DNA of 64,000 bases from Yuukianura sp. NJ FZ-2021 (taxonomy: Eukaryota): assembly GCA_046563655.1 (NCBI GenBank), contig CM102286.1, positions 1,054,001-1,118,000 of the forward strand. Direction: 5' to 3'. The notes under the pieces were generated by a model. It was not told the DNA's origin and searched no databases. It saw only the letters and a list, made by a program, of their open reading frames with translations. This document shows, piece by piece, positions 16,177 through 52,473 of the stretch; position 1 is the first letter of the stretch; each line of letters starts with the position of its first letter. A program made the translations under genes and the position numbers.

Positions 16177-16292
16177 AGATCTATGTGACCAATCTAAAAA
16201 AAATTCATGCTAAGGCTTTTCGAAAAACACTCTTGGGGATTTCTTAAAACTTGAAACAAAAACTTGGTGTCACGCTACAAACTGTGGTAAAG
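16177..16292 (+). promoter_or_regulatory. Upstream block conserved before all five IR-array genes
   Basis: gatctatgtgaccaatct...aattcatgctaaggc...gaaaaacac...aaacaaaaacttggtgtcacgcta...tgtggta recurs at ~16177, 19097, 23516, 26598 and 29018, within ~190 nt of each ATG. Confidence 0.55.
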
Positions 16293-16355
16293 AACGTTTT
16301 TTCACTAAAACTTAACTCCATTTCTATTTTTTTTTCAAAATCTGTAAAGTTAAAA

Positions 16356-18625
16356 ATGTTTTTTTCAAAAATTCGAATTTTCACCTGTGCTGTATTCTTT
16401 ACCACAGTCCAAATTATTGGAATGTGGCAAGTCAAAGGTCAAAGTTTAAATCTTGAACCCTATCTTCAAAGTTTCAAAAACTGCTACATCAATGTCGTTC
16501 TGCACTCGCCAAATTTGGATTTCTTCGCATCTTCTTATCCCATGTCTATTTCAACGCCAAAGTACATCGAAAATTCAACCGACAAAGATTGTGACTTACT
16601 GAGAACTGAAATTGCAGAAGGCGTTGATCCCGACTATGGCATTTGTCCTCGCGTGCGTTCAAATTTTCATCTCAGAGGTGTCAATTGCTTAGCTGCTGTT
16701 CAACTGCTACCACCAATTGATAACTTGTTAGAAGACGCTTTATCGTACATCTACAAATTTTGGAACAGATATCGCTCCATCAGTGAAATTCAATACGCCA
16801 GAAAATTAAGAAACGGTACAATTGAAAAAACTAAAATCAAAACCTATGGTTTTCATGTTCAATTTCATCCTTCACGAACTTTTGTTCAAATTTTGACCAA
16901 TCAGGTTGTAGGTAAAGTGGTTATGATGCGGAAGTGGAAATATCTTTACGCATCATATGCACTTATTAGTTTTCAACCAATCGTAGTTTTCGAATTGAAC
17001 AAAAATTGGAATTTTGAATCCAGTCGTGCAAATCTGTACTACTTGAACAGAAATCTAATCAAGTGGAGAACACTACAAACAGACCAAGGCAAGTCACTAA
17101 ACATAAAAATTTTTTGTCTTTTAAACATTTGTATCCAAAGTTTTGATTTTTAGTATTGACAATTGAGCAACGGGAACGGTGGCACATGGACAGCTTTTGT
17201 CATACCTTGGAAAACTTCAATAGTAACAAACTAGGAGCAGGGTTGAAAAATTTTCTGATAGGAACCGAGAAATGCTTGAATTCTGGGCAGATACATGATG
17301 GCATAGACAATCGTACCATAGCAACTGGTCCGCCGCCAATTTCAATCATCTACCCAACACCACTGAGCATGCGCTTTAACGCCGGAACTAACACTTACTA
17401 CCAACCTACGACACATTCAACAATGCTGGTAGTGACATCTTCTGGACTGGAATTTGCATATTTGCACACTCTACGGGACTACTTGTGTCCATTTCAAACA
17501 TTTGCTTGGGTCACACTCATCCTAGTCACACTTTTACTTACAGCTGCTCTCCACAAAGTATTTCAGTTTAAGAAATTTCAAGATTCCGCACCGACTTTAG
17601 TTTTGGAAATCTTTATGGAACAGAGTTGTTCACATTCAAACAAATTTTCAAAAGATAGATTACGTTACTGCCTCTTGGCAACATTTTTGGCGGGAATTGT
17701 TTTGACGAATAGTTACAAAGGCCTTGCCGTTATGTCTCTAATGAAACCTTTGGCGCCAATTGGAATTTCAAATTTAGAAGAAGCGTTGGACAAAAACTAC
17801 AAGCTGTACTACTACGACCGCAGTAGAGAGGGACTTCACAAAAAATTTTGCACGGGAGCGGAAACTTTTCACCAAATGTTTCAACGTACGCATGCGCAGA
17901 AGGAGAGCGGTTATTACACTCACTTGAGAGGGTTTCCATGGCAACGGACATTAAGCGATTTTCAATTTACCCAGCTATATTTTGGTCAGCAATTGATTGG
18001 CCTAATGTCATATAAATTCATAACTTTTTTGTCCATGATGACTGAGGCACAAGGTCGCAAACATTTGGCATCTTCTTTCCCGCCAAATTCCAAAAGTGAG
18101 AAACTAAATTTTCAAATGATTTCGGCAGCAGAACCTTTACCATGTCACTGCAAGGGGATAGTGACCTCAAAAATTTTAAAAGGTAATGCAATGTACGTTG
18201 GACCAGCAGCAGAAGTGACGTCTTTGCTCATGCGAGGTCAATTTTCAGTTGATGATGCTGATTTGTATGAGATTCAAGATGTCACGAGGGTTTTGGCCAA
18301 AGAAATGACAGGATTTCAGATACTTGGCGTAGCAAGCGTGAGAGCACCACTTGTACGAAAAGTGATGGCCTACGCAGAATCTGGTTCATTCACAAAGTTT
18401 AGTCAAAATGAAACGTTTTCAAACTTTTTGAAAGATATTTCCTGGATTAGAAAAACATCAAATTTCCAAAGTTGGCGGGATCCGAAACCTCTAACTTTGA
18501 AATCAAAAGTAACCGTTTCATTTGTAGTATACTTTTTTTGTATCACAATTTCAATTCTACAATTTCTGTTCAAAAAATGTGCTGTCGAATGTTTTCAGCA
18601 AAAATCTAAAGTCGTCGTTTTTTAG
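16356..18625 (+). CDS. Divergent ionotropic receptor, array copy 1, ~734 aa
   Basis: Exons 16356-17088 and 17154-18625 (GC-AG intron), 2205 nt. Signal-like leader, YLCPFQTFAW (pre-M1/M1), IFMEQ (M2), GIVLTNSYKGLAVMSL (M3), PLTLKSKVTVSFVVYFFC (M4). Confidence 0.82.
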
Positions 18626-19271
18626 TAACGTCTGATCTTCAGTTGCAAATTGTTTCATAACATAATTAACACACTCTGAAGTAAATGTGCTTGAGTTCAC
18701 AACACTAAAACGCTTTTGAACTGATTTATTTGCCATTTTCGTTTAAGTTGATCCTTTCTGGAAACGTCTCATGTTATTGAACATATCTATATATAAGCCA
18801 AATTTTCGCAGTTTTAAGCAATTTTGAAACGAATTTGAGTGTAGCAACAAAAATTCAGAAAAAAACGCTTAATATGCAAAGATGATAAGGTTTTTTGAAA
18901 TTTAAACGGTCCCGTTACACAAAATTGGCGCGATGCAAAGTAAAGACAACCAAAAATTCCTAAAATATTTCACAAAAGGACTTTGGTTTGCAGTCTTGTG
19001 AGACATAAATCATAAAAACGTTATGGAAGGTTGCCGTGAGACTTTTGAGCAAGTCCACAGCATGGCGTGACGTGCTTCTGGGCAATCCCTGCAGTGGATC
19101 TATGTGACCAATCTGCAAACAATACATGGTAAGGCGTTTCGAAAAACACTTTTGGGGTTTTTTCAAAACTGTATTTAAGAAACAAAAACTTGGAGTCACG
19201 CTAAAAATTGTGGTAAAGGTTTTACATAAAAACTTTTAAAATTTTCATTCCCAAGTTGTACAGCTTCAAAA

Positions 19272-22124
19272 ATGCTGCATTCAAAAATTCAAATTGTTGC
19301 AACTGGTATATTGTATGCCGCTATCCAAATTATTGGAACATGGCAGGTCAAAGGTCAAAGTTTAAACTTTGACCCTTATTTTCAAAGTTTCAGAAACTGT
19401 TACATTAACGGTATTCTGCACCAGCCAAATTTAAATTTCTTTGTTTCCACTTTTCCCTTGTCAATTTCAACACCAGAGTACATTCAAAATTACAGAGACA
19501 GAGATTGCGAGTTATTGAGAACCAACATTACAGAGGGCACTGATCCTGACTATGGCATTTGCCCACGCGTGCGTTCAAATTTTCATCTCCGAGGTGTGAA
19601 TTGCTTAGCTGTTGTTCAACTGATGCCACAAATTGACAACTTACTAGAAGACGCTTTTTCGTACATCTACAAATTTTGGAATCAGTATCGTCCCACTAGT
19701 CGATTGAAATATTCTAGAAAACTACGAAACGGAACAATTGAAAAAACACAAATCACCTACTACGGTTTCCAGGTTGTATTTTTTCCTTCACGCATCGTTG
19801 TTCAAATTTTGACCAACCAGGTTGTAGGTGAAGAGACAAGTATGCGAAAGTATAAAAATGCTGAGGCAGTGTATTCTGTCGCACGTTTTCAGCCAATCGT
19901 CGTGGTCGAATTGAACAAAAATTTGAGTTTTGAGTCCAGGCGAACAAGCTTGTACTACAGGAGCAGAAATTTTTTTATATGGGGTACACTGCAAACAGAA
20001 AAACGTAAGTTACTAAACTAAAACCATTTTTGATTTTTCTTAATCTTAATTGATTTTCAGTGTTGACAATTGAGCAACGTGACCGGTGGTATATGAACAG
20101 CTTTTGCTATAATTTAACTTTGGGAACTTCACATAACAGCAAATTCGGAGCAGATTTGAAAAATTTTCTGGTTGGAAGCGAGAAATGCTTGAATTCTGTA
20201 CATGCGTATGGCAGAGTAGGCCGTAGCAGGTCATAAGGGCTAAACCAAAAAGGGCTACTCCAATAAGGGCTACTCAATAAGGGCTAAAAAAAATAAGGGC
20301 TACTCCAATAAAGGCTACTCCAATAAGGGCTACTGTCAATAAGGGCTACTTTTAATAAGGGCTACTTAATTAAAGCGTATTTACTTATTTTCCCGCGCCG
20401 AAGGCGCGGCGTTAGGTTATTTAATTTACAGTAGTGATTAGTTTTTAATATGAAAGCCTAACCTAACCCCGGGCATCAACGAGGCCTGATGCAAATTACG
20501 AAGAAGTCTTGATTTTTAATTTGATATATTTTCTACAGCGATTAGGTATAAAATGCGGGAAGATAACACTGGAAGTTAATTCAGCAGGTAATTGAATTAG
20601 CGGTTATTTAAACTAGCCCTTATTAAAAGTAGCCCTTATTAAAAGTAGCCTTTATTGACAGTAGCCCTTATTGACAGTAGCCCTTATTGGAGTAGCCTTT
20701 ATTGGAGTAGCCCTTATTTTTTTAGCCCTTATTGAGTAGCCCTTATTGGAGTAGCCCTTTTTGGTTTAGCCCTTATGACCTGGAACCGAGTAGGCAGCAA
20801 CACAAGGGCAAACCTTCCGTTTAAAATTTCAATCTTGTACCCAATACCATTGACCATGCGCCATAATGCCGGGAGTAATATTTACTTCCAACCTACGACA
20901 CATTCAACTATGCTGGTGGTGACATCTTCTGGATTGGAATTTGCATATTTGCATACTCTACGGGACTACTTGTGTCCATTTCAAACATTTGCTTGGGTCA
21001 CACTCATCCTAGTCACACTTTTACTTATTGCTGCTCTACACAAAGTATTTCAGTTTAAAAAATTACAAGATTCTGCAGGGATTTTACTTTTTGCGATTTT
21101 CATGGAACAATGCTGTTCTTTTTCAATCAAATTTTCAAAAAATAGACTTCGTTACTTCCTCTGTGTACTATTTTTGGCGGGAATTGTTTTGACCAATAGT
21201 TACAAAGGTCTTGCAGTTATGTCTCTAATGAAACCTTTGGCGCCAATTGGAATTTCAAATTTAGAAGAAGCGTTGGACAAAAACTACACGCTGTACTACT
21301 ACGACAGAGATAGTAAAGACAACACATTTTGCTCAGGAGCTAAAACCTTTGACCAAATGTTTCACCGTGCGCATAACATGTCTGGGAGTAGTTATGGGGG
21401 TAAAGTTTACATGAAAGGATTTCCATGGCAACGGACGTTAAGCGATTTTGAATTTACCCAGTTTTATTTTGGTAAGTACTTGTTGGGCGAAATGTCGTAT
21501 AAATTTATTACTTTTTTGTCTATGATGACTGAGGCACGAGGTCGGAAAAATTTGGCCACTTTTTTCACGCCAAATTCCAAAAGTGAGAAGCTAAATTTTC
21601 AAATGATTTCGGCAGCAGAACCGTTACCATGTCACTGTAAGGGGTTAGTGACTTCAAAAATTTTAAAAGACAATGCAATGTACGTTGGGCCAGCAGAAGA
21701 AGTGAGGTCACTGCTCGTACGAAGTCAGTTTTCAGCTGATGATGCTGATTTGTATGAGGTTGATGACGTCACTGGGGTGCTGGCCAATGAAATGACAGGA
21801 TTTCAGATAGATGGCGGCGTAGCAGGTATTAGAGCACCAGTTGCACAAAAAGTAAAGACCTATATAGAATCTGGTTCATTCACAAAATTTGTAAAAAATG
21901 AGACTTTTTCAAACTTTTTGAAAGATATGTCCTGGATTAGAAAGACATCAAATTTTCGAACCTGGCATCACCCAAAACCGTTCAGTTTAAAATCGAAAAT
22001 GGCTGTTTCATTCGTTGTGTACTTGTTTTGTATCACTATTTCCATTCTACACTTTTTGTTTACACAAAAAAGCTACAGCAGATGTCAAATATTTTCAGAA
22101 AAAACTAAAGTCGTAGTTGTCTAG
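19272..22124 (+). CDS. Divergent ionotropic receptor, array copy 2; exon 2 interrupted by a MITE
   Basis: Exon 19272-20004, exon 2 from 20061. Insertion 20221-20788. Removing it plus one agtagg restores ...HAYGRVGSNTRANLPFK... with no other lesion. Confidence 0.78.
20221..20788. mobile_element. 568-bp foldback-type MITE with 6-bp TSD
   Basis: Arms of ~145 and ~175 bp are near-perfect inverted repeats built from ~15-bp units (aataagggctactcc). TSD agtagg at 20215-20220 and 20789-20794. Internal hairpin cgcgccgaaggcgcg and cctaacctaacc. Confidence 0.92.
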
Positions 22125-22409
22125 CAGCCTTTGCACTTCAATTGAAAATTGTTGCACAACAGTACTAACAAATTCTGAAATAATCTGACGGTAAACCAAA
22201 CGTAAACAATGAATGTTAGGTATGCGTAGGATTTTCCTAAAATATCTAAAGTCTTAAACATAATTCACAGTCAGCAATCTATAAAGTTTATAATTGCTAA
22301 AAAAAAAGAAAATTTTAACGTCTGGAATTTGCAAAACAAAGCCAGAGATGAATTCGAATTCACAAAACTTAAATTGAACGCCACCATTTTTATTCATATC
22401 TTGATCAAG

Positions 22410-22839: not shown

Positions 22840-23703
22840 TATTCAAAACTTTCTCTGGAAAGTGTTATTCTGGAAGTCGTTTTCAAACTAACTGAAAAAC
22901 TGGACTGAAAAGCCAATTTTTTCCCAACAATTTTGGAGCAAAGAAGTTGCGTGATGGAAGTTTTGTAGATTACAATGATTGCCTGCCATTGTGGGTAAAC
23001 GTTAAAGCCTACTTAAAAACTAATTGATGTCTGTTTGTTATTGTTTGCTCTTTTTGTACCTGAACTTATGCATTCTAACTACGAAACAGTTCTGAAATTC
23101 TGCAATTCGAGAACTCATGCTTATTACGGAAACATTTTTGAATTCGTTCTTTTTTCGGCGCATTTTCATCGTAACTTCTTTTCAGTCTGCTTTTTTTTTT
23201 CAATTTAAAGAAAAACCGTCTCAATTCATTTGCAATATGCCTCTTTGTCGACAACTTTTAAATTTGCATCTGAAATGTTGCCAAATTGCATAGCAAAAAT
23301 TTCCCTATTTTAAACCGGACTTAAATTTATGCTTAATAGAACGCCCTTGAAATTGAGTAAGGTCGCTTTTCTTAACTTATTAAACTAATTTTCTGTTTTT
23401 GCAAAACAGTTTTTTTTTATGTTAAGACAAAGATCAGCAAAAGGTTAAGGAAGTTGGCCTAGAGATGGTTTATGCATGATACGGCGACAAGCTTCCGGGC
23501 CGTTCCTGAAGTGACATCTCTCTGACCAATCTCACACAAAATCATGATAAGGCGATTCGAAAAAAAATTGGAAATTTGTAGAAACTGTATTCAAGACACA
23601 AAAACTTGGTGTCACGCTACAAACTGTGGGAAGGAAGGATAAGGTTTTCCATAAAAAGTAAACTTCACTAAAATTTTATTTTCCAAATTGTGGAACTACA
23701 AAC

Positions 23704-25984
23704 ATGTTCTACTCAAAAATCCAAATTTTCAACTGTGGTATATTGTTTGTAGCTATCCAAATTATTACAACGTGTCATGTGACAAATGTGAAAGGTCAAA
23801 GTTTAAATTTTGACCCCTATCTTCGAAGCTTCCGAAATTGTTACATCAATGTCATTCTGCACCAGCCGAATTTAAATTTCTTCGTTTCTACTTTTCCCGT
23901 GTCAATTTCATCACCAGAGTACATCCAAAATTACACCGACAGAGATTGTGACTTATTGAGAACGGAAGTTGCAGAAGGCGTTGACCCCGACTATGGCATC
24001 TGTCCTCGCGTGCGTTCAAATTTTCATCTCCGAGGTGTTAATTGCTTAGCTGTTGTTCAACTGATGCCACCAAGTGACAATTTCTTAGTGGACGCTCTTT
24101 TTTACATCTACAAATTTTGGAATCAGTGTCGTTCATTCAGTCAATTTCAATATTTCAGAAAATTACGAAATGGAACAATTGAAAAAACTAAAATAGCATT
24201 CTCCGGTATTCAGGTAGCATTTTATCCCTCACGCTCGTTTGTTCAAATTTTGACCAATGAGGTTGTAGGTAGAGCCTTGCTGGTACCAAGCATTAAGCAT
24301 CCTGACGTTAAGCATGTTGTATTACGTTCTCACCCAGTCGTAGTCGTCGAATTGAACAAATATTTGAACTTTGAATCCAGTCGTTCGAGTTTGTATTACC
24401 TACATATGGATCAAAATCTTCACAAATGGAGAACACTACGAAAAGACCAACGTAAGTTTACTACAAAATACTCATTCTTTGCTTTCTTTTTAAAATTTGA
24501 ATTCTAACGCTTGATTTTTAGTGTTGACTATTGAGCAACGTGAGCGGTGGCATATGAACCACTTTTGTCATACTTTTGGAAGTTCACTTAGCAACAAATT
24601 CGTAGCAGATTTGAAAAATTTTGTGGTTGGAAGCGGGAAATGCTTGAACTCTGCGCAGGCTCATGACAGAACAAACAGCACTATAGAAAATTTTCCGTCG
24701 CATATTTTAATTTCCTACCCTTCACCTTTGACCTTGCGCCGTAACGCGGGAAGTGACATTTACTACCAACCTACGACACATTCTACCATGCTGGTGGTGA
24801 CATCTTCTGGACTTGAATTTGCATATTTGAACACTCTACGGGACTACTTGTGTCCATTTCAAACATTTGCTTGGGTCACACTAATTCTAGTAACACTTTT
24901 ACTTATAACTGCTCTACACAAAGTATTTCAGTTTAAAAAATTTCAAGATTCCGCATGGATTTTACTTTTTGAAATCTTCATGGAACAGAGTTGTTCATAT
25001 TCAAAAAAATTTTCAAAAGATAGACTGCGTTACTTCCTTTGTGTAATATGTTTGGCAGGAATTGTGTTGACCAATAGTTACAAAGGCCTTGCAGTTATGT
25101 CTCTAATGAAACCTTTGGCGCCAATTGGAATTTCAAATTTGGAAGAAGGTTTAGACAAAAACTACACGCTGTACTACTACGACAGAGACAAGGAGGAATA
25201 TCATCAAAAATTTTGCATGGGAGAAAAGGAATATACTTTTGACCGAATGTTTCAAAGGGCGCATGGAAAGAAGAACGCTGGTACTGCTCACCTTAGAGGG
25301 TTTCCATGGCAACGGACGTTAAGCGATTTTGAATTTACCCAGTTTTATTTTGGTCAGCACTTGTTGGGTCAGACAATGTCGTATAAATACATTGCTTTGT
25401 TGTCCATGATGACGGAGGCACAAGGTCGCAAAAATTTGGCAACTTTTTTCACGCCAAATTCCAAAAGTGAAAAGCTAAATTTTCAAATGATTTCGGCAGC
25501 AGAACCGTTACCATGCCACTGCAAGGGATTAGTGACATCAAAAATTTTAAGGCGTAGTGTAATGTACGTTGGACCGGCTGAAGAAGTGAGGTCACAGCTC
25601 ATACGAGGTCAATTTTCAGTTGACGATGCTGATTTGTATGAGGTTAGTGACGTCACTGGTGTTTTGGCCAATGAAATGACAGGATTTCAGATAGTTGGCA
25701 TAACAAATGCTAGAACACCACTTATACAAAAAGTGAAAGCTTTTGTTGAGTCAGGTGCTTTTTCAAAATTTTGTCAAAATGAAACTTTTTCAAACTTTTT
25801 GAAAGATATGTCATGGATTAGAAAAGCTTCAAATTTTCAAAGCTGGCACCACCCAAAACCGCTAAGCTTAAAATCAAAAGTGACTGTTTCATTTGTTGTG
25901 TACCTTTTTTGTATCACAATTTCAGTCGTACATTTTTTGTTCAAAAAAGCTACAGTAAGATATGGTTGTCAAATATTTTCATAG
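23704..25984 (+). CDS. Divergent ionotropic receptor, array copy 3, ~736 aa
   Basis: Exons 23704-24451 and 24522-25984 (CAAC|gtaagt...tttag|TG), 2211 nt. Same motifs as copy 1. Confidence 0.82.
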
Positions 25985-26782
25985 AAAGACTAAAGTCTTT
26001 TAGTATTTTTTTTAAAACAAGTTTCACAATTCAAATTTAAAATTTGAATTTTAAAATTAAAAAATTTGGAAATAAAGAACCACGCTACATCACACGTGTT
26101 TGTGGTGCTGTTGGGAATTCCTTAAGCGTACTTTTGTAGCGTGGAAAAAACCTATACACGTTTCAGAATCTCGAATTTGAAACAGGACTATACTGCAAAT
26201 TAACATAGGAAAAAATCACTACTACAAACCAATTAACTTAAAATTTCCTGAAGTGCATCATTAAAAAGTCCCATGATTACAACAAGTTTTTAACGTTTGC
26301 CTTTTTAATAAATTTTGAAAGAAATTTGCAATGTAGCAGCAAAAAAAAATTCAAGAAAAACAACAGCAGTAAATTACGCAAAAAGCATAACGTTTTTTTT
26401 AAAGTTCTGCCTGCAACCCAGTTACCCAAAATTTGTTCGATTCAAAATAAAGATAACCAAAAACTCTAAAAATATTTCACAAAAAACTTTCGGATGTTTG
26501 CTTTGGTGGTAGACAAAAATCAACAAAACTTTTACGATACGGCGGTTTAACAAGCTTCTGGCATGCGGTGACATGCTTCTGGGCATTTCATGAAATCGAT
26601 CTATGTGACCAATCTAAAAAGAATTCATGCTAAGGCTTTTTGAAAAACACTTTTGGGGATTTCTTAAAAGTTTATTTAAGAAACAAAAACTTGATGTCAC
26701 GCTAACGACGGTGGTAGGGAAGGTTTACAATAAAAATAAACTCGTCGAAATTTTGATTTCCAAATTCTTTTGAACTTGAAAA

Positions 26783-28167
26783 ATGTTGTATTCAAAAATT
26801 CAAATTTTTACCTATGGTGCATTGTTTGTCGCTGTCCAAATTATTGTCAAAAGTCAAAGTTTAAATGTTGAACCCCATCTTCAAAGCTTCAGAAACTGTT
26901 ACATCAACGCCGTTCTACACGTGCAAAATTTAAATTTCTTTGTTTCTTCTTTTCCCGTCTCAATTTTAACGCCAGAGTACATCCAAAATTACACCGACAG
27001 AAATTGTGACTTATTGCGAACAGAAATTGAAGCGGGCGCTGATCCCGATTATGGCATATGCCCACGCGTGCGCTCAAATTTTCATATCCGAGGTGTGAAT
27101 TGTTTAGCTGTTGTTCAACTGCTCCCACCAAATGACAACTTTCTAGAAGATGCTTTTCTGTACATCTATAAATTTTGGAACCAGTATCGTCCTACTAATC
27201 GATTTCAATATTCTAGGAAACTACGAAACGGAACAATTGCAAAAACTAATATCTCCTTCCACAGTATTCAGGTTGCATTTTATCCTTCACGCATTTTTGT
27301 TCAAATTTTGACCAATCAGGTTATGGGTAGAGTAGCTACGATACAAAAGTGGAAAAATTCTGTGGCAGGGTATGGTTATACGTCATGATCTTCACAGGAA
27401 AAATTAATTTTGACCAAATGTTTCAACGCACGCATGGACAGAAGAAGGGGGGTAAAGCCCACCTTAGAGGGTTTCCATGGCAACGTACGTTAAGTGATTT
27501 TCAATTTACTGAGTTGAGCTTTGGTCAGTACTTGATGGGCCAAATGTCATATAAATACATTACTTTTTTGTCTATGATGACTGAGGCCCAAGGTCGCAAA
27601 AATTTGGCCACTTTTTTCCCGCCGAATTCCAAAAGTGAGAAACTAGATTTTCAAATGATTTCGGCAGCAGAACCGTTGCCATGCCACTGTAAGGGAATAG
27701 TGACCTCGAGATGTTTAAAACCTAATGTAATGTACGTTGGGCCAGCAGAAGAAGTGAGGTCACTGCTCGTACGAGGTCAATTTTCAATTGATGATGCTGA
27801 TTTGTATGAGGTTGATGACGTCACTGGGATTTTAGCCAATGAAATGACAGGATTTGACATAAGTCATTCTGTAACGAGTATTAGATCGCCACTTGTACAA
27901 AAAGTGAAAGCGTTTATAGAGTCTGGTTCATTTACAAAATTTAGTCAAAATGAAACGTTTTCAAATTTTTTGAAAGATATGTCCTTTATTAGAAAAACTT
28001 CAAATTTCCATAGTTGGCAGGATCCCAAGCCGCTGACTCTAAAATCAAAAGTAACCGTTTCGTTTGTGGTCTACGTTTTTTGCATCACAATTTCAATTTT
28101 GTACTTTTTGTTGAAAAAAGCTGCAGTAGATAATTTCCACACAAAAACTAAAGTCTTTGTGTTTTAG
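26783..28167 (+). pseudogene. IR array copy 4 with ~0.9-kb internal deletion and frameshift
   Basis: Exon-1 homology stops near 27380 and jumps to the S2-region sequence (acaggaaaaattaattttgaccaaatg). The intron and M1-M3 are absent, and the frame stops at 27388. Confidence 0.82.
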
Positions 28168-28601
28168 TACCTTTGCCCTGCGAATTCGAAATTGTTAATA
28201 GCAGGACTAAACAATTCGGAAATAAATTGGCTGAGACAAGCGGATGACATGTTTCGTTTTGTCAAAAAGCTTCACATTTCTAATACACGGCGGCGGTTTC
28301 TCTCAAAAAATCATTTAAGACATTCAGTAAACGCTGAAAAGTGTTGTCCTTAAACGTACGAATTAAATTTTGATTTCTGTTTTCAAATTAATATAGGTAC
28401 AAAATCAATACAAACCAATTCACTGAAACATTCCTTGTCTAAGCTAGAATGTGATTTAAATGTTTGAGAAATTTTTACAAGTAATTGCTATAGTATAGAA
28501 AAAAAATTAAAAGAAAACATCAAGTTAAATAGAATACTATGAGGTAAGGTCCCTTAAAAATGTTTTTTCAAAGCGCGGTTGTCATGGGAAAAATCTGAAA
28601 G

Positions 28602-28703: not shown

Positions 28704-29186
28704 CGTTATTTTTCATTGTTTACTTTTCAAAAATCGGTTTTTGGTCGCTTGGGGCTTTTTCGCTGCTAGCTGAGAAAACATATTAAAATTTAAAATTTAT
28801 AAAATTTAAAACATAAAATTTTTTAAATGTAAAATGATCATGGAATGGAAAGGGGTTACACGAAATTGGTTCGTTTCAAAAACAACAAAAAACTCTTAAA
28901 TGATTTGACCAAAAAATTTCATGTTAGACAAAAATCAACAAAACGTTGTGGAAGTTTGCGATAAGATTATTTAAAGTCTCTGACATGGTCACATGCTTCT
29001 GAGCCTTGTCTGAAATAGATCTGTGATCAATCTACAAACAATTCATGATGATAAGGCTCTACGAAAAACACTTTTGGGAATATTTTAAAACTGTATTTAA
29101 GAAACGAAACCTTGGTGTCTCGCTACAAACTGTGCTAAAATTTAGTTTTCATAAGAATTAAAATTCCAAATTGTGGTAGTACAAAG

Positions 29187-31468
29187 ATGTTTTACTCAAA
29201 AATCCAAATTTTTACAATAGTTTTATTGTTTATAGCTATTCAAGTTATTGGAAGATGGCAAGTGAAAAGTCAAAGTTTAAATTTCGAACCCTACGTCCAT
29301 AGCTTCAGAAACTGTTACATCAATGTCATTCTGCACCAACCAAATTTAAATTTCATCGTTTCTACTTTTCCCGTGTCAATTTCATCGCCAGAGTATATCC
29401 AAAATTACACCGACAGAGATTGCGACTTCTTGAGAAACGAAATTGCAGAGGGCGCTGACCCCGATTATGGCATTTGCCCACGCGTGCGTTCAAATTTTCA
29501 TTTGCGAGGTATTAATTGCTTAGCTGTTGTTCAACTGCTACCACCAATTGATAACTTGCTAGAAGACGCTTTTTTGTACATCTACAAATTTTGGAACCAG
29601 TATCGCCCTATCCGTCAAGTTCAATACTCCAGAAAATTACAAAACGGAACAGTTGAAAAAACACAAATATCACCCAACGGGTTTAACGTAGCATTTCGTG
29701 CTTCACGCACGTTTGTTCAAATTCTGATCAATGAGGTTGTAGATAGCGTGGTTGAGATCCGACGGTTTAAAGATCATGACGTAGAGCAGTATGCTGTATT
29801 AAGTTTTCAACCAATCGAAGTCGTCGAATTGAACAAAAATTTCAGTCTTGAATCCAGTCGTACCAGTTTGTACTACGTGAAGAAATATTATGGAATAGTT
29901 ACAGGAATGGCAATGTGGAAAACACTACCAACAGAGCAACGTAAGTTAAGTGAGAATATACATTTTTAGGTTCCTTTTTAAATCAGAATTCAAATGTTTG
30001 ATTTTTAGTGTTCACAATTGAGCAAGTTGAGTGGTGGCATTTGGACAGCTTTTGCCGTACCTTGGGAACAAACAAATTCGGAATACATTTGAAAAATTTT
30101 CTGTTAGGAAGCGGAAAATGCTTGCATTCTGCGTATAACAGAATAAACAATCATACTAGCGCAAATAATCCGTCACATATGCCAATCTTCTACCCCACAC
30201 CACTTACCATGCCCCATAACGCCGGAACTAACACTTACTTCCAACCTACGACACATTCAACTATGCTGGTGGTGACATCTTCTGGACTGGAATTTGCATA
30301 TTTGCACACTCTACGGGACTACTTGTGTCCATTTCAAACATTTGCTTGGGTCACACTCATCCTAGTAACACTTTTACTTACAACTGCTCTACACACAGTA
30401 TTTCAGTTTAAAAAATTTCAAGATTCTCCATGGGTTTTACTTTTTGCGGTTTTCATGGAACAATGTTGTTCCATTTCAATCAAATTTTCAAAAGATAGAC
30501 TTCGTTACTTCCTTTTGGCAATATTTTTGGCGGGAATTGTGTTGACGAATAGTTACAAAGGCCTTGCAGTTATGTCGCTAATGAAACCTTTCGCTCAAAT
30601 TGGAATTTCAAATTTGGAAGAAGCTTTAGACAAAAATTACACACTGTACTACTACGACAGAGATCTGGATTGGCTTCACAAACAACTTTGTACAGGAGAA
30701 AAACCATTTGATTATGTATTTCAAAGTGTCCATGTACACCACAGCGAAAATCAGTACCTTAGAGGGTTTCCATGGCAACGGACGTTAAGCGATTTTGAAT
30801 TTACCGAGTTTTATTTTGGTCAGCACTTGTTAGGCCATCAAATGTCATATAAATACTTTGCTTTTTTGTCCATGATGACTGAGGCACAAGGTCGCAAAAA
30901 TTTGGCATCTTTTTTCCAGCCAAATTCCAAAAGTGAGAAACTAAATTTTCAAATGATTTCGTTAGCAGAACCGTTACCATGTCACTGCAAAGGAATAGTA
31001 ACTCCAAAAATTTTAAAGGACAACGCGATGTACGTTGGGCCAGCAGAAGAAGTAAGGTCACTGTTCATACGAAGTCAATTTTCAGCTGATGATGCTGATT
31101 TGTATGAGGTTAATGACGTCACTGGGGTTTTGGCCAACGGAATGACAGGATTTCAGATAGATGGTTTAGCAAGTATTAGAACACCACTTGTTCAAAAAGT
31201 GAAAGCTTTTGTTGAGTATGGTGCTTTTTCAAAATTTAGTCAAAATGAAACTTTTTCAAACTTTGTAAAAGATATGTCCTGGATTAGAAAAACATCAAAT
31301 TTCCAAAGTTGGCAATATCCGAAACCTCTGACCATGAAATCAAAGGTAACCGTCTCATTTGTTGTGTACGTTGTTTGTAGCACAATTTCCATTGTACACT
31401 TTTTGTTCAAAAAAGTTGCATTAGATGTCAACTATTTTCAAATAAAAACTAAAGTGGTAGTTTTTTAG
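29187..31468 (+). CDS. Divergent ionotropic receptor, array copy 5, ~737 aa
   Basis: Exons 29187-29940 and 30009-31468, 2214 nt in frame. Same motifs as copy 1. Confidence 0.82.
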
Positions 31469-31680
31469 CAACCTTCGACTCGCGACTTCAAATTGTTGCA
31501 TATAATAATTAAATAATTTAAAAATTCTGAAATAAATTGACTAAAGGAATCAGATATGCTTTGCTCTGTGCAAAAGCTTCACATTTTTATTATACTGCGA
31601 TGATTTTTTCAAAAAAGCATTTAACAGATTTAGTAACGCCGAGGTCATTGCCCTATGAACCGAATACATTTGAAACCGGT

Positions 31681-32822
31681 TTATGCTTGAACCGAAATGG
31701 GTTGAGGCAGAGTCTCCGGTTTGCGTTGTACTGTGACGTTGTATGTGACGTCAAGGTAAGGTTCCTTGCAGCAGTCGTATGTTTTGGAGTTCCGGTCTCC
31801 CGGAGCCGACAGAACTTTCCATTCCGTAATGTCGTCAAAGTCACTCATGTCCATTTCCTTTTGCTAATAATTTTTCAAAATTTTGAAATTTAATATACAA
31901 TACTAAAAAAATTCACAAAAATAATACTGGACTTACATCATTGTACATGCCCATATCTAGAATGAGTCCATCGTATGTCCAGGATCCAAACTTCATCATA
32001 CAAGTCTGTGGTGCAGTTGGGAATTCCTTGAGCGTATTTTTGCAGCGTGAAAAGAATCGACATGGAGGAACCCACAGGACTTCGCCATTTGGATAAATCA
32101 AAGCGTTAGTTTTGTCACAAGAGGAATCAAAGTCTCCGTGTCTCGTATCAGCTGCGTTGTACAATCTGCAAGAAAACGCAAAAATCTAAAATTTTGAAAT
32201 TTGAAAATCCAAATTTTTAGCGTATTCCATTCCAAACATACCGAATGTCAGGAATCCAAACATTTTCAACTGGTACGCGTAAAACCCCGATTTTGCTGAA
32301 CTCATCTTCGTCCCATCGGAGTCTGGGATCATTCCATACCTAGAGACAAGATGAAAAAAATTTTGAAAAAAGCACCGAAAAGAAATTGGATTTTTGATTT
32401 TTTTTGTTTTGCAAATTTTTTTCAGTACCATTCGAATCCAAATGTTGGAGTCTAGATATGAGGCGTACTCGTTCTGGAAAGTTAAAAATTATTTTTAATT
32501 TGAAAATTCAAAGTTTCTGAGAAAATTTTAATTTTGGATTACCATTTGAGCAGTTATGAGTGCGACACCAAATTTCACGCTTGCAGAATCTGGAATAATG
32601 TGCTTGTTGTAGTTTTCAAAAAGTGCTTTGTACAGCCTGTCTCTTGCATCAGCAAGTTTTCCCGTCGACCCGCCACTGATGTCTTGTGCTCTGCATTGGC
32701 TAGCTATGTTAAAAAAAAATACATTTAAAAAAATATATCTAAAAAATGAAATTTTTAAGTGAAGTTTTGTTTTAGTTTTTACCTAGAGCGATAACAACTA
32801 AAAGAAGTGCAGGTCGAAACAT
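31681..32822 (-). CDS. Soluble acetylcholine-binding-protein-like (nAChR alpha-type ligand-binding domain only), 6 exons, 251 aa
   Basis: Exons 32822-32783, 32703-32543, 32473-32429, 32339-32242, 32165-31937, 31863-31681 (756 nt). Signal peptide, WNDPRLRW, WIPDIRLYN (loop A), C-x13-C Cys-loop, FGSWTYDG (loop B), YDCCKEPY (loop C), then VQRKPETLPQPISVQA-stop. Minus-strand TATAAAA at 32900-32894 and AATAAA at 31591-31586. Confidence 0.9.
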
Positions 32823-34425
32823 TTTTGTAGTTTGAGAATTGTGTTAGTGCTGTTTATGAATTGAAGTGATGGTGGTGCAATTCAGTACAGTCGTTTTATA
32901 CCAAAATTTAAATTTTGACTGACGTAGATTTTGCAAGATTTCACAGATTTTTTTGTAGAAATAGAACTAAAGTACGTCAGGATCGCAATATCGCTGAAGG
33001 CCTTGTCGACAAGTTAATATTTAGTGATAACCGCAATTTAAGAAAAAACTTAACTAACTTCGGAAGAAGCCTATTTAACTTCAATTGAGAGTGAGCGGCA
33101 GGTCACTAGATTACAAGGTCAAACTGATAAAGTGAAGTACATTGACGCAGGACTGAAACTTCGGCATGAACTACATTTTCATACAAACAATGTTCCAAAA
33201 CAAAATTTTCCAAAGCCACTCTTATGTGTAAATTTCAAAATTTTTAAAATTGCGCAATAAGAATCCACTTCAGTTAAAATTGAGAAAAAATTCTTAGAAT
33301 TGAAACTAATTTTAAAAGCTGGTTTCCGGTTGAGCTAATGTTGAAATTGATTTGAATGAGTTTGACCCCTTGACTTCTGAACGCTAGTAGAGCATGATGT
33401 TGTTCAGAACAAAATCACAAATGCGAATTTTAAAAAAAATGTCCAAACACATTTTTAAAATAGAACATTTCTAAAAAAAAGTCAATCTATCACCATTTAT
33501 TTTACGATATGCTCTTAAGGAAATAAATTGCAGATGATTTTTTCATGAAATTTGCATGCAACTTATGAAGTTTATTTTCGTTTCAAATTACATCTAAACA
33601 AAAATTTGGAAAACTAAAGTTTCAAATTGACAAATTGAAATTTTGTAAGTTGATAATTAATTCAAGAGTGAAAAGCTACTTTTCAATTTTTCAAGTACAA
33701 TGGTCAGTATACGTTACAACTGTTGAGGTCAAAAGGTCAACCTAATTTTTAAGTCCATCCTCATCATCATCATTCCTCACTAAAGTTTTTCAATTGATCT
33801 TGATCAGTTTGTCCTTTACAAATAATGCAATACTCTGCGCGTGGTTAAAAATTGCAAATAAATACGTCGCTGGGTGAAGCTCAAGCTCAATGAAATTAAA
33901 AACTTATGCTTAAGTTTACGAAACTTCAAAAGAATTTCAAGTCTGCAAATGTCTGAGTCTGCTAAATGTTTTGATGTCATTTGTAACAACATTTGAAGTT
34001 CAAAGGTCGATGGAATCTGTATTTCTAAAACTGGATCATACCAACTAAAGATCAAATGTTTTATGCTTAACCGCCACCTTGATATGTGTCCATAATTACT
34101 TTTATATCGTCATGTTCAACTACAACAAGAAGGCCATATTTAACTATAGTTTACTAACTTTAACTATCATTTCATAACTTACGCTTTCCTAAGAATTAAG
34201 TCATTAGTATGTAACTTCCACATTCCCAAATGCACTAACTACAATAGATAATTGTGAAACCTCCAGGAATTAATAATGGGCTAGTGTAAAACCACATATA
34301 AGAAGAGCAATTTCGTGGTTTTAGTGTACATCCAGATCTCATTCGCATAGAATTTTAGTCATTTCCACCACAAAAGTTCAAAATTTTTTAGAAGTTCTCT
34401 TGTTTTGAGAAAGCCATAGTTTAGG

Positions 34426-36116
34426 ATGACTAAGCTTTTGGAAGTGAGTTTGGCGCTGCTCATCATCGCAACTACAACTGTGTCTGTGAATTCAAAAAGT
34501 TTGGCGTTAAGAACAGATTTTGTTAAAAGAGAAGTTCCTGCAGAGGATCCACCATACTTGTATGATGAAGCAGCCAACACATCTACGTTGCTCCAACTCG
34601 AAATTGTAAAAAAAAATTCTAAATTTTACTAAATAAACCATAAAAAAAAGTTTAGTGTACTCAAATTTTGAGAATTGATTTTTTTTAGATTTTTAGACAC
34701 GGAGCTAGGACGCCTCTTATGACTTTTCCGACGGATCCGAACAAAGACTTTGATTATGGAGTTAAAGGATTAGGGCAGTTGACACCCGTAAGTTTTAAAA
34801 TTTGGAAAGCATCAAACCAAAATTTTCAAAATTTTGAACTTTATGATTTTTTTTTAAAGAGGGGAATCCGTATGGGATATGAACTGGGAGGATATTTGCG
34901 TAAGCGCTACGATAAATTTTTTGCTACTGACTATTCGTCGGACCAAGCGGATTTGCTGTCCAGTGACACTGATCGAACGATAATGACTGGACAAGCGGTT
35001 CTTGCTGGACTGTTTTCAGTAGATTGTGTTGGACAAAGCACTGTTTCAGATGAATGTCCAGTTAAAAACCTCAATTGGAAACCAATTCCAGTTAGAACAA
35101 TTCCGGATAAGCTGGACAACGTGAGAAACTTTTTAAAAAAGTTTTAAAAATTTCATTTTCAAAGGTTATGAATTTGTAAAATTTCTGATTTTTAGAAACT
35201 CTTGTTTGACGCCAAGTGCAACCGTTTCGACATGCTGTTCAACCAAACTTTTAAATCTTCCAAAGTCAAAACTGTTTTGGACCAAAATAATGCAAATATA
35301 AAACTTATCAAGGAAAATACTGGATTGCCGGATGTTGACGTTGTAACGCTCCAGTATCTTTCTGATGCTTTTAAAGTCCAAGTAAAATTTCATAAACAAA
35401 AAAATTTAAAATTTTTTGAATTTTAAATTTCAAAATTCTTCCTTTTTCAAAATAATTCTAAGATCGAAAATGGACTGACTCTTCCTGATTGGACACAACA
35501 GTTAGACCAAGATGCATTGGCTAAGGTTGTGGATTGGGAATTTACTTTGAACACTTCCACGTCTGCGCTGAGTCAACTTGAGATTGGTCCCCTGATGGGC
35601 CACATTATTCAAAATTTGGAACTGGGCATGAGCAAAGACTCAAATTTAAAAAAGACTGGAGACAGTGAAGAGTTGTACAGTCTGCGCAACGCTAAAGCCC
35701 ACCTCTACTCCGCCCACGATACAACAATTTCATCGTTTCTAAATTCTTTTGGTCTCTACAACACAGGAGACCAACCTGTGTATACGTCAGCTCTTATCGT
35801 CGAACTTCACCAATCAGCAGCCACTACGAATTCGACCAATCAAAACGATCCGACTATCAAGGTAATAATATTATAATCTAAACGACGAAAATAGCTATAA
35901 AACGCCACTAGTTCATGTTAAAATTTAACTTTTTTACCCAATTTTTAGCTTTTCTACAAAAACAAACGGAATGAGCCTATCAAAGAACTGGAATTTCCAA
36001 AATGCAAGTCTCCCTGCACTCTGACTGATTTTAAAACGGCCTACCGAAACTGGATTTTGAGCGAATCTCAGTGGAAACAACTTTGTCAAAATTTAGTTCA
36101 AAAGAAAAGTATTTAA
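34426..36116 (+). CDS. Histidine acid phosphatase (lysosomal/prostatic type), secreted, 6 exons, ~430 aa
   Basis: Exons 34426-34605, 34689-34787, 34860-35120, 35196-35381, 35463-35861, 35949-36116. Catalytic RHGARTP and YSAHDTT, signal peptide, no C-terminal TM. Confidence 0.92.
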
Positions 36117-48948: not shown

Positions 48949-51492
48949 TTATTTTGAAATCACGAACTCGGCTGAAAAAAGTAGGGAAGCTACGGTGACC
49001 AAGGTGACGTAGATACATAGACCACAAAGGACGTAGTTACTGTCAATCGTCATGGCATTGTACTGGAACAATGACAAAGCTGGTCCAGCTCCATGTGCTT
49101 CCGATCCAGCTTCCTGTTTATCCGGTCCTGCTTGTCCATCCGGCTTTTGTCCATCCGGCCCATGTCCATCTGGCTTTTGTCCATCCGGCCCATGTCCATC
49201 TGGCTTTTGTCCATCCGTCCCATGTCCATCCGGCTCTCGCCCATCTGGCTCTTGTCCATCCGGTTCTTCCCCTCTTGAGCCTTTTCCTTTCGGCTCTTTT
49301 CTTTTCGGCCCTTTTCCTTTCGGCCCTTCTGATGGTGGCGGTTTACGCCTTGATCTCGGATCCAGCAGAACATTAAAAATTCCAGAATGGATGAGATGCT
49401 GAATTCTGGTATAAAATGTTCCAAGTCTATCCCACCCCATTCTGCCCATTTCCCAAATGTAAGTATGGTGCATGAACTTGTCTTTTCCAATATAAAATTC
49501 AGATTTTGAAGTTTTCGAAAGCCTTCCGTATAAATTTTTCAATTCTACTGAATTTCCTACAAAAATGGTTTTGTTGCATTTGCTCAATTCTTGCTCCATG
49601 GTTAAATTTGGAGAGTAAACAATACTAATACTGTTAAAAATCTTTTCGTATTTGGCTTCGTAAAAACTAACTTGATCTGGTTCAAGTGTACTTTTGTGGG
49701 CAAATTCCTCTGTGGGACCAACATACTGCCAGAGTGCTGTCAAAAATTGAGTTAAAACTCCAGCTTTACTCTGCTCCTCCATATATTCCAAAATAGTTTT
49801 CGAAATTTTAAGCGATTCTGAAATTTTAATGATTTGAAGTTGGCGGGTAGTTTTTGAAATGGGTGGAATTATGACATAGCCTTTGCTTACTGCTTCGTCT
49901 ATTGTTGTAATGTATTTAGTCGGAATTGGAGCTGTACTGTCAGTAGTGATTGTTGCTTTGTAAATATTTGCTACTAAAAGAGAAACAAAATTTACCAAGA
50001 GAATAAAAAGTTTCAAAAATTTTAACTTTTGCAATTTTGAAGAAAGTTGTGCATTCTGCTCCAAAATGATCTCGGCTTGAATGAAAAGTGGATCATCAGA
50101 AAGTTCCAATTTCCAAAAAACTAGTTTCAAAAAAATTGCTACAGCGGCAAAACTGAATCCAAAGGAAATCCAAGTTGACCAATGAAAACAGTGTTGAAAT
50201 ACACCGAAATCCATGTATTTGTGACTTCCATCACATGTTAACAAATTGTAAAAAGTTCCTCGCGTGTAGAAAAAGTAGTCGTCGCTAGTTCGGGCATCTT
50301 TAGAAGCCTGTTTTCCTGCCACATTTCGAGGATTAATGAAAACTTGCGAATTAGTTGAATATTTTGAAAACTTGAATGGAAAGGAATGAATTTTTGTAAA
50401 AATTAGTTGCGACTGAATTTGGAGAAAAAGTTGATCTGACTCAAGGTGGGTAAACAATAATTAAAGCTACATCAGGTTGTCCAGTAACTGGAACTTTTAA
50501 AATTTGTTTGAACAAAAAATTTTGACTTTCCATGGTAATTTTTTGCATGTGATGCAAATGGGATTGGTGCAGAATTGGTGCAGAAATTTGTTTGGAGTAA
50601 GATTTTTGGAAACCATGAGGTACTGGATAACCTCTTGTAGATTAATTGCAAATTGGTTGCTATAGCAACCTTGATCTGACTTGTTTTGGGGTAAAGCAAA
50701 AAGTTGGATCATTTGAAAATGAAATCCGTCTTTATCGCCTTGTAATCTACCTTTGTCACGTAAAATTTCATTAGTTGCTGCGTCTCGTACAACAATTTCA
50801 CCATTAGGTTCTCCAGTAGTGTAAATCAAGCCATGAAACATATATTCCCAAGTTATTTTACAGTAACCGGTTATTAAAATTTTGAAAAGAGTGTCCAAAA
50901 TGTGTCGCTGGATTAAAATTTCAGTTGAATTGACAACCAGTGTTGACAGAGCAGTTTCACATGGCACGTTGCTTCTAGTTACGAGGAGTGTTGCTTTTTC
51001 TGAAATCTCGTATATGAAAATTAGGTGAATTTTTGAGCTTACATAGGCGCCTGCCGTTGGTTTCAAAAATGGATGAGACTGATTTTTGAAAATCAATAAA
51101 TATGTTTGTCGCATACCGCAGTATTTCAAAGAATTGTTACAGTAAAAAAATTTGACCAAATTCATTCCAAGAGTAATTGCTGAAGTTCTTGTAGGATATA
51201 CAATTAAGATAAGTTGACAAATTTGATGGTTGAGTTGACTCTTTTGTGGTGCAGAAAAATTGGCAATTGCAATTTCGTATTTTGTAAGTTGAGGTCTCGG
51301 CATTGAATTTGGTGTTTGGTGGAACAACTGAACAACTGAAACGTCTTGACTTACAGAAAAAGTTGATTCGTCGAAGCGTATGATAGCATTTCTGCAGTCT
51401 TTGAAATCGCTGATGTCAATTTTCAAATTTTTATCAGATTTTGATGTTGTTACTACGGTAAGACAGTAAAATACAAACCCAAAATTTTTCAT
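48949..51492 (-). CDS. Divergent ionotropic receptor split by a MITE (possible new intron), ~769 aa
   Basis: Signal peptide. FQHCFHWSTW (M1), IILEQ (M2), LLVANIYKATITTD (M3), C-terminal M4. The two long ORFs join as LPQNKSDQLFLQ on removal of 50442-50673 plus one TSD. Confidence 0.78.
49120..49330 (-). repeat. 15-bp coding repeat (GxxPD / GxxPK pentapeptides)
   Basis: GPKGKGPKRKEPKGKGSRGEEPDGQEPDGREPDGHGTDGQKPDGHGPDGQKPDGHGPDGQKPDG. Confidence 0.9.
50442..50673. mobile_element. CAAGG-MITE copy 3, inside IR coding sequence
   Basis: Ends caaggtgggta...tagcaaccttg. Perfect 8-bp TSD atctgact at 50434-50441 and 50674-50681. Confidence 0.9.
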
Positions 51493-52473
51493 GTTGAAAG
51501 AAATTGTAATTTTTTTCTAAAAACAAAATTAGGCTAAGAAGTGGAAATCCGGAATGAGTTCGATCGACTTTTGTTGTCATTTATTCCGAAAAGCATTTTT
51601 TTAGCTGTGTAAACGTTGTGTGTTTATGGTTCTCTCGAGACTTCAAAAATTCAAATTTCAAAATTTCGTACGTTGTTGTAAAACAGTTTTCCTTTTGGGA
51701 TCGAAAGATATGCCCTTGACATGTGCTTGACTTTCTTTTGGAATGTTTGACTAAAGTGAAAAACTTGAATCATTAATAAGCAAATGTTTCAAAAAAACAT
51801 TTTTAGACAACAACTTTTGTTTTTGAAGAAGTATTTCATCAACGCCATTTTTTTTTTCGAATTCAACATTTTTCATTTATTTCTACTTGAAATGTCTCTC
51901 AAATGGGTTGATTATTTGTATCTTTGATGTCTCTGAACAACACGTTTGTATGTTTTTGACAATTTTGCACATCATTTTTTTTTCTGTTTGATGTGCACTT
52001 CAAGCCACCATCGATTTGAACCTAAACTAAGTGCACTGACTTCTGTGGAATTAAAACAGAGAAAGGCGTTTTCCAGCCCATTTCTTGTTTTGTTCTACTT
52101 TTCCCCGTGTCGTAAATAATTCAAATCTTCCGTTCCGCTTTCCATGAATTTGTGTCGTCTTTTGATTGGTAGTTTGCCGTTTCCACCTTAGTTGTTAGAA
52201 TTTTTCCAAAAAATATTTCAAAATTTCCTAGAAGAAATAAACAAGAATCAATAGTTGCACAAGGGAGTTCAGCAGTTTCAGCCATATTTTTATTCCACCG
52301 TAATTCAGTTGCAAGTCAACCTTGCAAGTTGCAACCTTGCAAATCAACTTGGCACTTTGTCTAAACAAAATGTAAATTTTCAGTTTTAAACATAACGGAA
52401 AACATTTTTTTGCAATCCATTAGACCTATTTTTGCTCTTTCGCAATCAATAAATCTCACATCATTCAAAACCG

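Follow-up and report, generated by a model that had tools for sequence, protein, structure and literature searches.

Gene structure and conserved motifs

The DNA analysed here is a window of 64,000 nucleotides (nt) from Yuukianura sp. NJ FZ-2021 (GenBank assembly GCA_046563655.1, contig CM102286.1, positions 1,054,001 to 1,118,000 of the forward strand), and all coordinates below are positions within this 64-kb window. Near its middle, on the minus strand, lies a gene that resembles those of soluble acetylcholine-binding proteins (AChBPs). The results described below support a gene that is intact and expressed and whose product is a ligand-binding domain (LBD) of nicotinic type, with a secretion-type N-terminus and without a channel. 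The six exons of the gene join into an open reading frame (ORF) of 756 nt that encodes 251 residues followed by a TAA stop codon, and the five introns, of 79, 69, 89, 76 and 73 nt, all have GT..AG ends. The stop-to-stop frame that bears the ATG begins at 32843, so that an in-frame stop lies just upstream of the start codon. A TATAAAA sequence (32892–32898, minus strand), about 70–77 nt upstream of the ATG, may be a core promoter, as read from the sequence.

All six exons are on the minus strand. Exon 1 (32783–32822, 40 nt) contains the ATG and a hydrophobic, signal-peptide-like N-terminus and is followed by the donor GTAAAA. Judged by eye, this N-terminus (MFR, then ALLLVVIALA, then SQC) resembles a signal peptide, with Cys17 located beside the presumed cleavage region. 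Exon 2 (32543–32703, 161 nt) encodes the N-terminal helix and the first strand of the LBD; it was aligned with the N-terminal helix region of related proteins and has no Pfam match on its own. Loop D, with Trp79 (W79) in the motif NIWIRM, is located on exon 3 (32429–32473, 45 nt), which resembles the 45-bp exon 3 of vertebrate nicotinic acetylcholine receptor (nAChR) genes. Exon 4 (32242–32339, 98 nt) extends from a WxPD motif to the start of loop A. The longest exon, exon 5 (31937–32165, 229 nt), comprises Y117 of loop A, loop E, two additional cysteines (Cys131 and Cys150), the Cys-loop (C156 and C170, with 13 residues between them) and loop B with W177 in KFGSWTYDG. Exon 6 (31681–31863, 183 nt) consists of loop F, loop C with the motif YDCCKEPY (Y220, C222, C223 and Y227) and the last strand, which runs to VQRK and is followed by a tail of 12 residues, PETLPQPISVQA, and the TAA (31683–31681). 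The aromatic box (Y117, W177, Y220, Y227 and W79) is therefore complete in the window protein.

Three of the exons match the Pfam family PF02931 (Neur_chan_LBD) individually, with E-values of 7.3e-09 for exon 4, 1.3e-16 for exon 5 and 6.4e-08 for exon 6 (35.8, 61.1 and 32.7 bits respectively, at a cut-off of 26). The matches are colinear at profile positions 57–87, 92–158 and 168–216 of 216; thus, the LBD reaches the very end of the Pfam profile. An initial annotation, made from the sequence alone, had proposed six in-frame exons encoding 251 residues, the motifs of loops D, A, B and C with a 13-residue Cys-loop, and an end consisting of VQRK, 12 residues, a stop and an AATAAA. This model was reproduced throughout, with GT..AG ends at every intron, all of the motifs present in single-exon translations and the AATAAA 90 nt past the stop codon.

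Transcript evidence and selection

RNA evidence was obtained from the single public run in which part of the 64-kb stretch was found; its library is labelled as a sediment community, and it contained 7% of the sampled words of the stretch. Contigs of this run were compared with positions 31300–33100. One 644-nt contig matches the gene (95–99% alike, about 96% identical), with neither indels nor loose ends. It covers 31573–31863, 31937–32165, 32242–32336 and 32426–32452, and includes exons 6, 5 and 4 and the 3′ part of exon 3. The intervening 73, 76 and 89 nt, which have CT..AC ends on the plus strand and correspond to introns 5, 4 and 3 as predicted, are skipped. Since these introns were precisely removed, the contig represents spliced RNA and not DNA carry-over, and exon 6 is the terminal exon in this molecule. 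The contig remains colinear with the genome for 108 nt past the stop codon, which represent the 3′ untranslated region (3′UTR) seen in RNA (31573–31680, minus strand); the AATAAA is located at 31591–31586, and the contig ends 13 nt after it, at 31573. Exons 1 and 2 are outside the contig, and the missing coverage there carries no information.

The contig differs from the genome at 25 positions. Among the 20 listed differences (the other five were not classed), 16 are coding, with 11 synonymous and five nonsynonymous. In the domain (codons 100–239), nine synonymous differences stand against two conservative replacements (A136V and V236L), whereas the 12-residue tail has two synonymous differences and three replacements. 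Purifying selection acts on the domain, but not on the tail. A lack of expression combined with a neutral ratio of nonsynonymous to synonymous changes had been put forward at the outset as evidence against a working gene; the spliced RNA and the 9:2 ratio of synonymous to conservative differences in the domain point the other way.

Absence of a channel-forming part

The whole window was searched by tblastn (E≤10) with 160 proteins, consisting of the joined window protein and 159 relatives, most of them full-length subunits with the transmembrane (TM) segments M1–M4. Within the gene, the alignments of TM-bearing queries stop at their LBD/M1 border. No M1–M4 exon was detected by these 160 queries in the 64 kb, which include 31.6 kb downstream of the stop codon and 31 kb upstream of the gene. 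Only one genuine match was found outside the gene, a relic at 26046–26153 (see below); the remainder are scattered, with E-values of 0.003 or worse. A Kyte-Doolittle scan with a 19-residue window indicated no membrane segment in the window protein, and its tail is short and polar, with no evident retention signal or membrane anchor. The M1–M4 region of the PF02932 type that is required of an nAChR alpha subunit is absent from the protein.

Between the stop codon of the AChBP-like gene and the end of a convergent ORF on the plus strand (31468) there are 212 nt (the initial annotation gave about 210 nt), and the AChBP-like message ends beside this neighbour. Splicing to distant TM exons, which had been named as the observation that would overturn a channel-less gene, is not seen in the RNA contig, which is colinear through the stop codon, and there is no TM exon for it to reach in the 64 kb.

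Channel-less relatives and phylogeny

To collect relatives, longer proteins were searched with exon 5 through a word index; eight candidates were scored, of which seven passed E≤1e-05. These seven proteins contain 175–283 residues, match PF02931 only and are found on contigs of about 1 kb. A profile of the seven, searched against 1.84 billion cluster representatives, matched 15,408 proteins at E≤0.001, of which the best 150 were kept. The joined window protein scores 302 bits against this profile and is not itself among the cluster representatives searched. Its closest match shares 47% sequence identity (P0001, 242 residues, E 9e-80), followed by matches of 45%, 46% and 48%, and a 171-residue fragment (P0025) shares 53%. 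Overall, the channel-less relatives are 40–53% identical to the window protein.

In a FastTree phylogeny of 170 LBD domains (227 columns), the window protein is placed in a clade of 23 proteins with a support of 0.974. In all 23, the domain is followed by no more than 45 residues and a TM segment is lacking. A second tree was calculated with IQ-TREE (LG+G4, 1000 ultrafast bootstrap (UFBoot) replicates) for 68 sequences, namely the 40 nearest leaves and 28 chosen at random from the rest. The UFBoot values around the window protein are 95 for its grouping with P0025, 98 for a group of six, 99 for a group of 20 and 81 for the group of 23. A wider group of 37, of which 35 are channel-less, has a UFBoot of 100. 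The next branch out (UFBoot 91) consists of three TM-bearing proteins, one of which is named as a krill (Meganyctiphanes) protein. The trees are silent on the size of the family relative to the receptors, because the query profile was built from the family and the best 150 matches are enriched for it. A phylogeny against both nAChR subunits and known AChBPs had been suggested with the initial annotation. The two trees supply the first half of this comparison, since they place the window protein relative to TM-bearing proteins of receptor type; the AChBPs of molluscs, annelids and spiders were included in neither.

The clade members are metatranscriptome contigs of 0.9–1.6 kb. Of the 80 loci identified in a scan of metagenome records, the 12 best are intron-less contigs of 1.0–1.6 kb. 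Eleven of these 12 contain a complete ORF of 240–299 residues with an upstream in-frame stop and a hydrophobic N-terminus, and in the same 11 the stop codon follows a few residues past the domain, with a 3′UTR of 94–813 nt. In the twelfth (L004), a signal-like ATG is found in a different frame, probably as a result of an assembly indel. Four of the 12 contigs end in a run of A, and no common spliced leader was found at the 5′ ends of the 12 transcripts. Four genomic contigs of relatives (L013, L044, L063 and L072) contain short introns, one of them at the position of intron 5 of the window gene (between exons 5 and 6). No TM exon is present in these four contigs, although their flanks are short and this is weak evidence.

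Because the messages of the relatives end alike and the clade is channel-less, the loss of the channel is ancestral to the clade and not private to this genome. The initial annotation had suggested that an nAChR alpha subunit was possibly truncated independently, and as a private event this is not sustained, given a clade of 20–23 channel-less proteins (UFBoot 99 and 81) that share 40–53% sequence identity with the window protein. The gene belongs to a large, old and diverse family of channel-less proteins found in environmental RNA, a family that appears to be undescribed.

The C-terminal tails vary within the family. Many clade members have a short tail with a single cysteine, and a subgroup contains a conserved R-[IL]-P-G-E-E-L-F-type motif; the tail of the window protein, unlike those of many relatives, has neither. 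The tail cysteines of the relatives may support higher-order disulfide-linked assemblies. In addition, four of the best profile matches (P0008, P0009, P0010 and P0020) are 857–1215 residues long and contain two to five LBD matches, some with repeated TM blocks. They represent either tandem genes that were fused in the models or genuine multi-LBD proteins.

Binding site and fold

In a gap-free alignment of exon 6 with residues 160–206 of human alpha7, the loop C tyrosine, the Cys-Cys pair and the second tyrosine are matched and QRK is placed over the pre-M1 RRR. Loop C itself, YDCCKEPY in the window protein, lies over YECCKEPY of human alpha7, and the vicinal cysteines and flanking tyrosines of alpha-type subunits are both present. 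KFGSW of exon 5 is matched in the nAChR alpha3, beta3 and beta4 sequences of the Protein Data Bank (PDB).

The binding-site residues are largely kept in the 22 other members of the core clade. The loop D tryptophan is present in 19, the loop A tyrosine in 17 (with phenylalanine in four others) and the loop B tryptophan in 19; in loop C, the first tyrosine is present in 19, the two cysteines in 19 and 18, and the second tyrosine in 17. The two cysteine columns of the Cys-loop are invariant both in the core (22 of 22) and in the sister group (12 of 12). The additional cysteines, C131 and C150, have counterparts in 19 and 20 of the 22 core members and in none of the 12 members of the sister group, from which we infer that the two are probably joined in a disulfide that spans the loop E hairpin and is specific to the clade.

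The fold was modeled for P0001, the closest full-length relative, using an alignment of 38 rows. The model has a mean predicted local distance difference test score (pLDDT) of 87.8 and a predicted template-modeling score (pTM) of 0.80. A Foldseek comparison with the PDB identified the ectodomains of nAChR alpha7, alpha1 and alpha9 (E about 1e-21, root-mean-square deviation (rmsd) 1.5–2.7 Å), with a template-modeling score of 0.88–0.89 on ectodomain-only chains.

A decayed second copy and the neighbouring genes

The relic mentioned above (26046–26153, minus strand, 108 nt) corresponds to the Cys-loop part of exon 5 only. It is 61% identical to the gene over 36 residues by tblastn (E 6e-07) and 81% identical over 74 nt, to 31983–32056, by blastn. 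Both Cys-loop cysteines are replaced in the relic, and an in-frame stop is present. A tandem paralogue of the convergent neighbour ends at 25984, and the relic is located 93 nt past this point, which is the same relative place as that of the intact gene. The AChBP-like gene and its convergent neighbour were duplicated together, and the extra AChBP-like copy then decayed.

The convergent neighbour itself is part of a tandem array whose genes consist of two exons each (about 280 and about 490 residues). On the plus strand, these genes are found at 16248–18625, 19230–22124, 23662–25984, 27331–28167 and 29139–31468; on the minus strand, they are found at 9918–11898 and 48949–51516. Four of the copies are 73–76% identical to each other, and two are 20–24% identical to the first. 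The convergent neighbour had been labelled an ionotropic receptor (IR) gene in the initial annotation. A Pfam search of the array family, including the convergent neighbour, produced no family at E≤10 beyond noise and no match to Lig_chan (PF00060). No homologue of the convergent neighbour was found at E≤0.001 among 7999 scored candidates, and a PDB profile search with it returned a single, unrelated match (E 1.1). Its AlphaFold2 model (pLDDT 32) was unusable. The hydrophobic segments of its 488-residue exon, judged by eye, do occur in an M1-pore-M2 ... M3-like order. The IR label, which is putative, therefore lacks support from Pfam, homologues, PDB profiles and structure prediction. The array is an orphan membrane-protein family.

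The 3′ end of the convergent neighbour and its flank (31400–31636) recur, at 71–76% identity, at 28105–28330, 22053–22189, 18563–18669 and 25934–25996, and the match to 28105–28330 extends into the 3′UTR of the AChBP-like gene. The 3′ ends of the two convergent messages are probably shared or directly adjacent.

Three other protein-coding loci were recognized in the window. An exon of a flavin monooxygenase (FMO) gene (2377–3000, minus strand; Pfam Lys_Orn_oxgnase / FMO-like) has, among the best matches listed, only bacterial-type CzcO or Baeyer-Villiger monooxygenases as named proteins, at 36–50% identity. This gene may have been horizontally acquired by an animal genome. Two exons of a histidine acid phosphatase gene (34689–35876, plus strand; His_Phos_2, E 8e-15 and 6.5e-08) are located upstream of the AChBP-like gene, and a multi-exon gene for an ABCA-type transporter (54367–59936, plus strand) contains separate exons that match ABC_tran, ABC2_membrane_3 and the ABCA1 R1 regulatory domain. 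Neither the Rfam scan nor the tRNA scan yielded a match in the window.

Proposed function and alternative explanations

The product of the AChBP-like gene is very probably a secreted protein that consists of the LBD only. We also consider it likely, at a lower level of confidence, that the locus as a whole is functional and encodes a soluble AChBP-like protein of alpha type that is secreted. That the product binds a cholinergic ligand is slightly favored, by analogy with known proteins.

The proposed mechanism would begin with entry of the protein into the secretory pathway and its assembly into a homopentamer through its (+) and (−) faces. One and the same subunit would contribute the principal face (Y117, W177, Y220, C222-C223 and Y227) and the complementary W79 of loop D, and with both faces in one subunit, a homopentamer with five agonist pockets would be possible. 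These five aromatic-box pockets, at the subunit interfaces, would bind acetylcholine or other quaternary-ammonium or nicotinic ligands. In a protein without a pore, binding could only sequester the ligand, and the result would be a buffering of extracellular acetylcholine or a soaking up of nicotinic toxins.

Several points weigh against this proposal. The RNA support consists of a single contig with a word depth of about 6, from one run of a community sample, and its source is about 4% divergent from the genome. The contig does not extend over exons 1 and 2, so that the start codon, the signal peptide and introns 1 and 2 are predictions; it ends near the AATAAA without an A-tail, and a contig end alone is no proof of a poly(A) site. 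The structural model is that of P0001, which is 47% identical to the window protein, and not that of the window protein itself. Pentamer formation and ligand binding are extrapolated from alpha7-type receptors and mollusc AChBPs. Three to four of the 22 core-clade members lack the tryptophan or Cys-Cys residues of the site, which suggests that ligand specificity is not uniform in the family. Finally, the Cys-loop keeps a receptor-like proline and a hydrophobic tip (FPT; the proline is followed by Y or F in the family). This region contacts the membrane domain in channels, and its retention might be a sign that the protein works with a partner rather than free in solution.

The last of these points would agree with the explanation that the channel-less subunit co-assembles with full-length nicotinic subunits, in the endoplasmic reticulum or at the surface, or docks on a membrane protein, and modulates or suppresses receptors in a dominant-negative or auxiliary manner. 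We regard this as unlikely. It would accord with profile scores that place the family nearer to genuine alpha subunits (175–194 bits) than to mollusc AChBPs (128–136 bits), with a Cys-loop that retains its 13 residues as well as its proline and hydrophobic tip, and with conserved interface regions and the superposition of the P0001 model on receptor ectodomains (rmsd 1.5–2.7 Å). However, the window protein has no evident retention signal or membrane anchor and its tail is short and polar, the complete agonist site on both faces is kept across the clade, as homomeric binders would need it, and no full-length nAChR gene is found nearby, within the 64-kb window.

Some relatives of the mollusc AChBPs have been reported to have non-cholinergic roles, and the protein might likewise be a secreted pentameric scaffold that was recruited to another job, such as binding a different small molecule or ion, or a role in immunity or the matrix. 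The loss of the loop B tryptophan or of the vicinal cysteines in three to four of the 22 clade members would fit such a change, as would the clade features that are unrelated to acetylcholine binding (the extra cysteine pair in 19–20 of 22, and the tail cysteines in many). Against it, the window protein keeps all of the aromatic-box and vicinal cysteine residues examined, and the differences from the RNA variant within the domain are almost all synonymous; we consider a non-cholinergic role improbable.

The two remaining explanations are made very improbable by the RNA contig, the pattern of substitutions in the domain, the absence of TM exons and the transcripts of the relatives. The locus could represent the 5′ half of a conventional nicotinic subunit gene, whose TM exons would lie outside the window or be joined by alternative splicing, with the short form as a minor isoform. 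A weak, donor-like GTAC site does occur within the codons of VQRK, and just one RNA contig is available. That contig, however, follows the genome without a break past the stop codon and for another 108 nt, no M1–M4 exon is found downstream (31.6 kb) or upstream (31 kb) at a locus where introns are 69–89 nt long, 11 of 12 transcripts of relatives end alike, and the members of the clade are channel-less throughout. A recently truncated, functionless remnant in decay, to which the decayed sister copy in the same array and the fast-evolving 12-residue tail (three of five changes nonsynonymous) might point, would hardly retain an intact ORF and five intact pairs of splice sites, be spliced and expressed, show nine synonymous against two conservative differences in its domain, and have many relatives of the same architecture at 40–53% identity.

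We advance tentatively, at somewhat less than even odds, that the gene represents a large, old and hitherto undescribed family of secreted alpha-type binding domains, one that arose from a receptor subunit independently of the mollusc AChBPs and now occurs across many poorly sampled small invertebrates, where it would serve as a general extracellular acetylcholine buffer or as a sink for nicotinic toxins and insecticides. The hallmarks of such a family would be the receptor-like Cys-loop of 13 residues, the extra loop E disulfide, and either cysteines or a conserved motif in the tail, through which higher-order assemblies may be formed.

Comparison with known AChBPs and receptors

In research on drugs, toxins and insecticides, soluble AChBPs serve as the principal structural substitutes for nicotinic receptors. 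According to PMC4569296 and PMC10934791, the AChBPs that have been characterized are from molluscs, one annelid and spiders. As stated in the former, AChBPs before that of the spider Cupiennius had been reported from molluscs and one annelid; the latter cites AChBPs of the spider Pardosa pseudoannulata and of Capitella teleta. A literature search, with subscription journals mostly outside its scope, found no description of the present family, so that a prior description is possible, and, within the same scope, no AChBP from crustaceans or hexapods.

The seven-sequence family profile scores the ectodomains of nAChR alpha2, alpha4, alpha6 and alpha7 at 175–194 bits and the Aplysia-type and Lymnaea-type AChBPs at 128–136 bits (E 1e-36 to 1e-38). 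The receptor ectodomains exceed the mollusc AChBPs by 40–60 bits, and the nearest TM-bearing neighbours in the trees are of receptor type. Because the profile scores favor the nAChR alpha ectodomains, a common origin with the mollusc AChBPs is not indicated, and an independent origin is suggested, albeit only indirectly. By architecture and proposed function, the window protein is an AChBP; by descent, as far as its sequence indicates, it is better described as a channel-less branch of the alpha-type nicotinic subunits.

If so, the family would represent a second, probably independent, case of a receptor that became a secreted ligand sponge. Since its members are closer in sequence to real alpha subunits, they could provide more receptor-like surrogates for invertebrate nicotinic pharmacology, which is relevant to users of AChBPs as receptor surrogates and to cholinergic signalling and insecticide sensitivity in small invertebrates. 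If the proteins of this family bind neonicotinoids in non-target animals of sediment and soil, they could affect the sensitivity of these animals.

The closest counterparts of the window protein are the metatranscriptome proteins (P0001, P0003, P0005, P0011, P0025 and others), which share its architecture, end point, extra cysteine pair and binding-site residues. Among receptors, alpha7-like nAChR subunits are the best matches in both sequence and structure, with loops A–D conserved; unlike nAChR alpha subunits, the window protein has no transmembrane domain and ends 12 residues after the pre-M1 basic pair. The mollusc AChBPs (Lymnaea, Aplysia and Bulinus) are similar to it in consisting of a signal peptide (predicted here) and an LBD without M1–M4, in the vicinal cysteines of loop C and the aromatic box, and in their length of about 210–230 mature residues, and a soluble, sequestering pentamer would be expected in both cases. 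They differ from the window protein, which has a receptor-type Cys-loop of 13 residues and an extra conserved cysteine pair (C131 and C150). The spider and annelid AChBPs resemble the family in that they are channel-less LBD proteins of about 246 residues from outside the molluscs. For the AChBP of Cupiennius salei (CsAChBP), PMC4569296 describes a transcript with start and stop codons and a Cys-loop of 16 residues, in contrast to the 13 residues in the family of the window protein.

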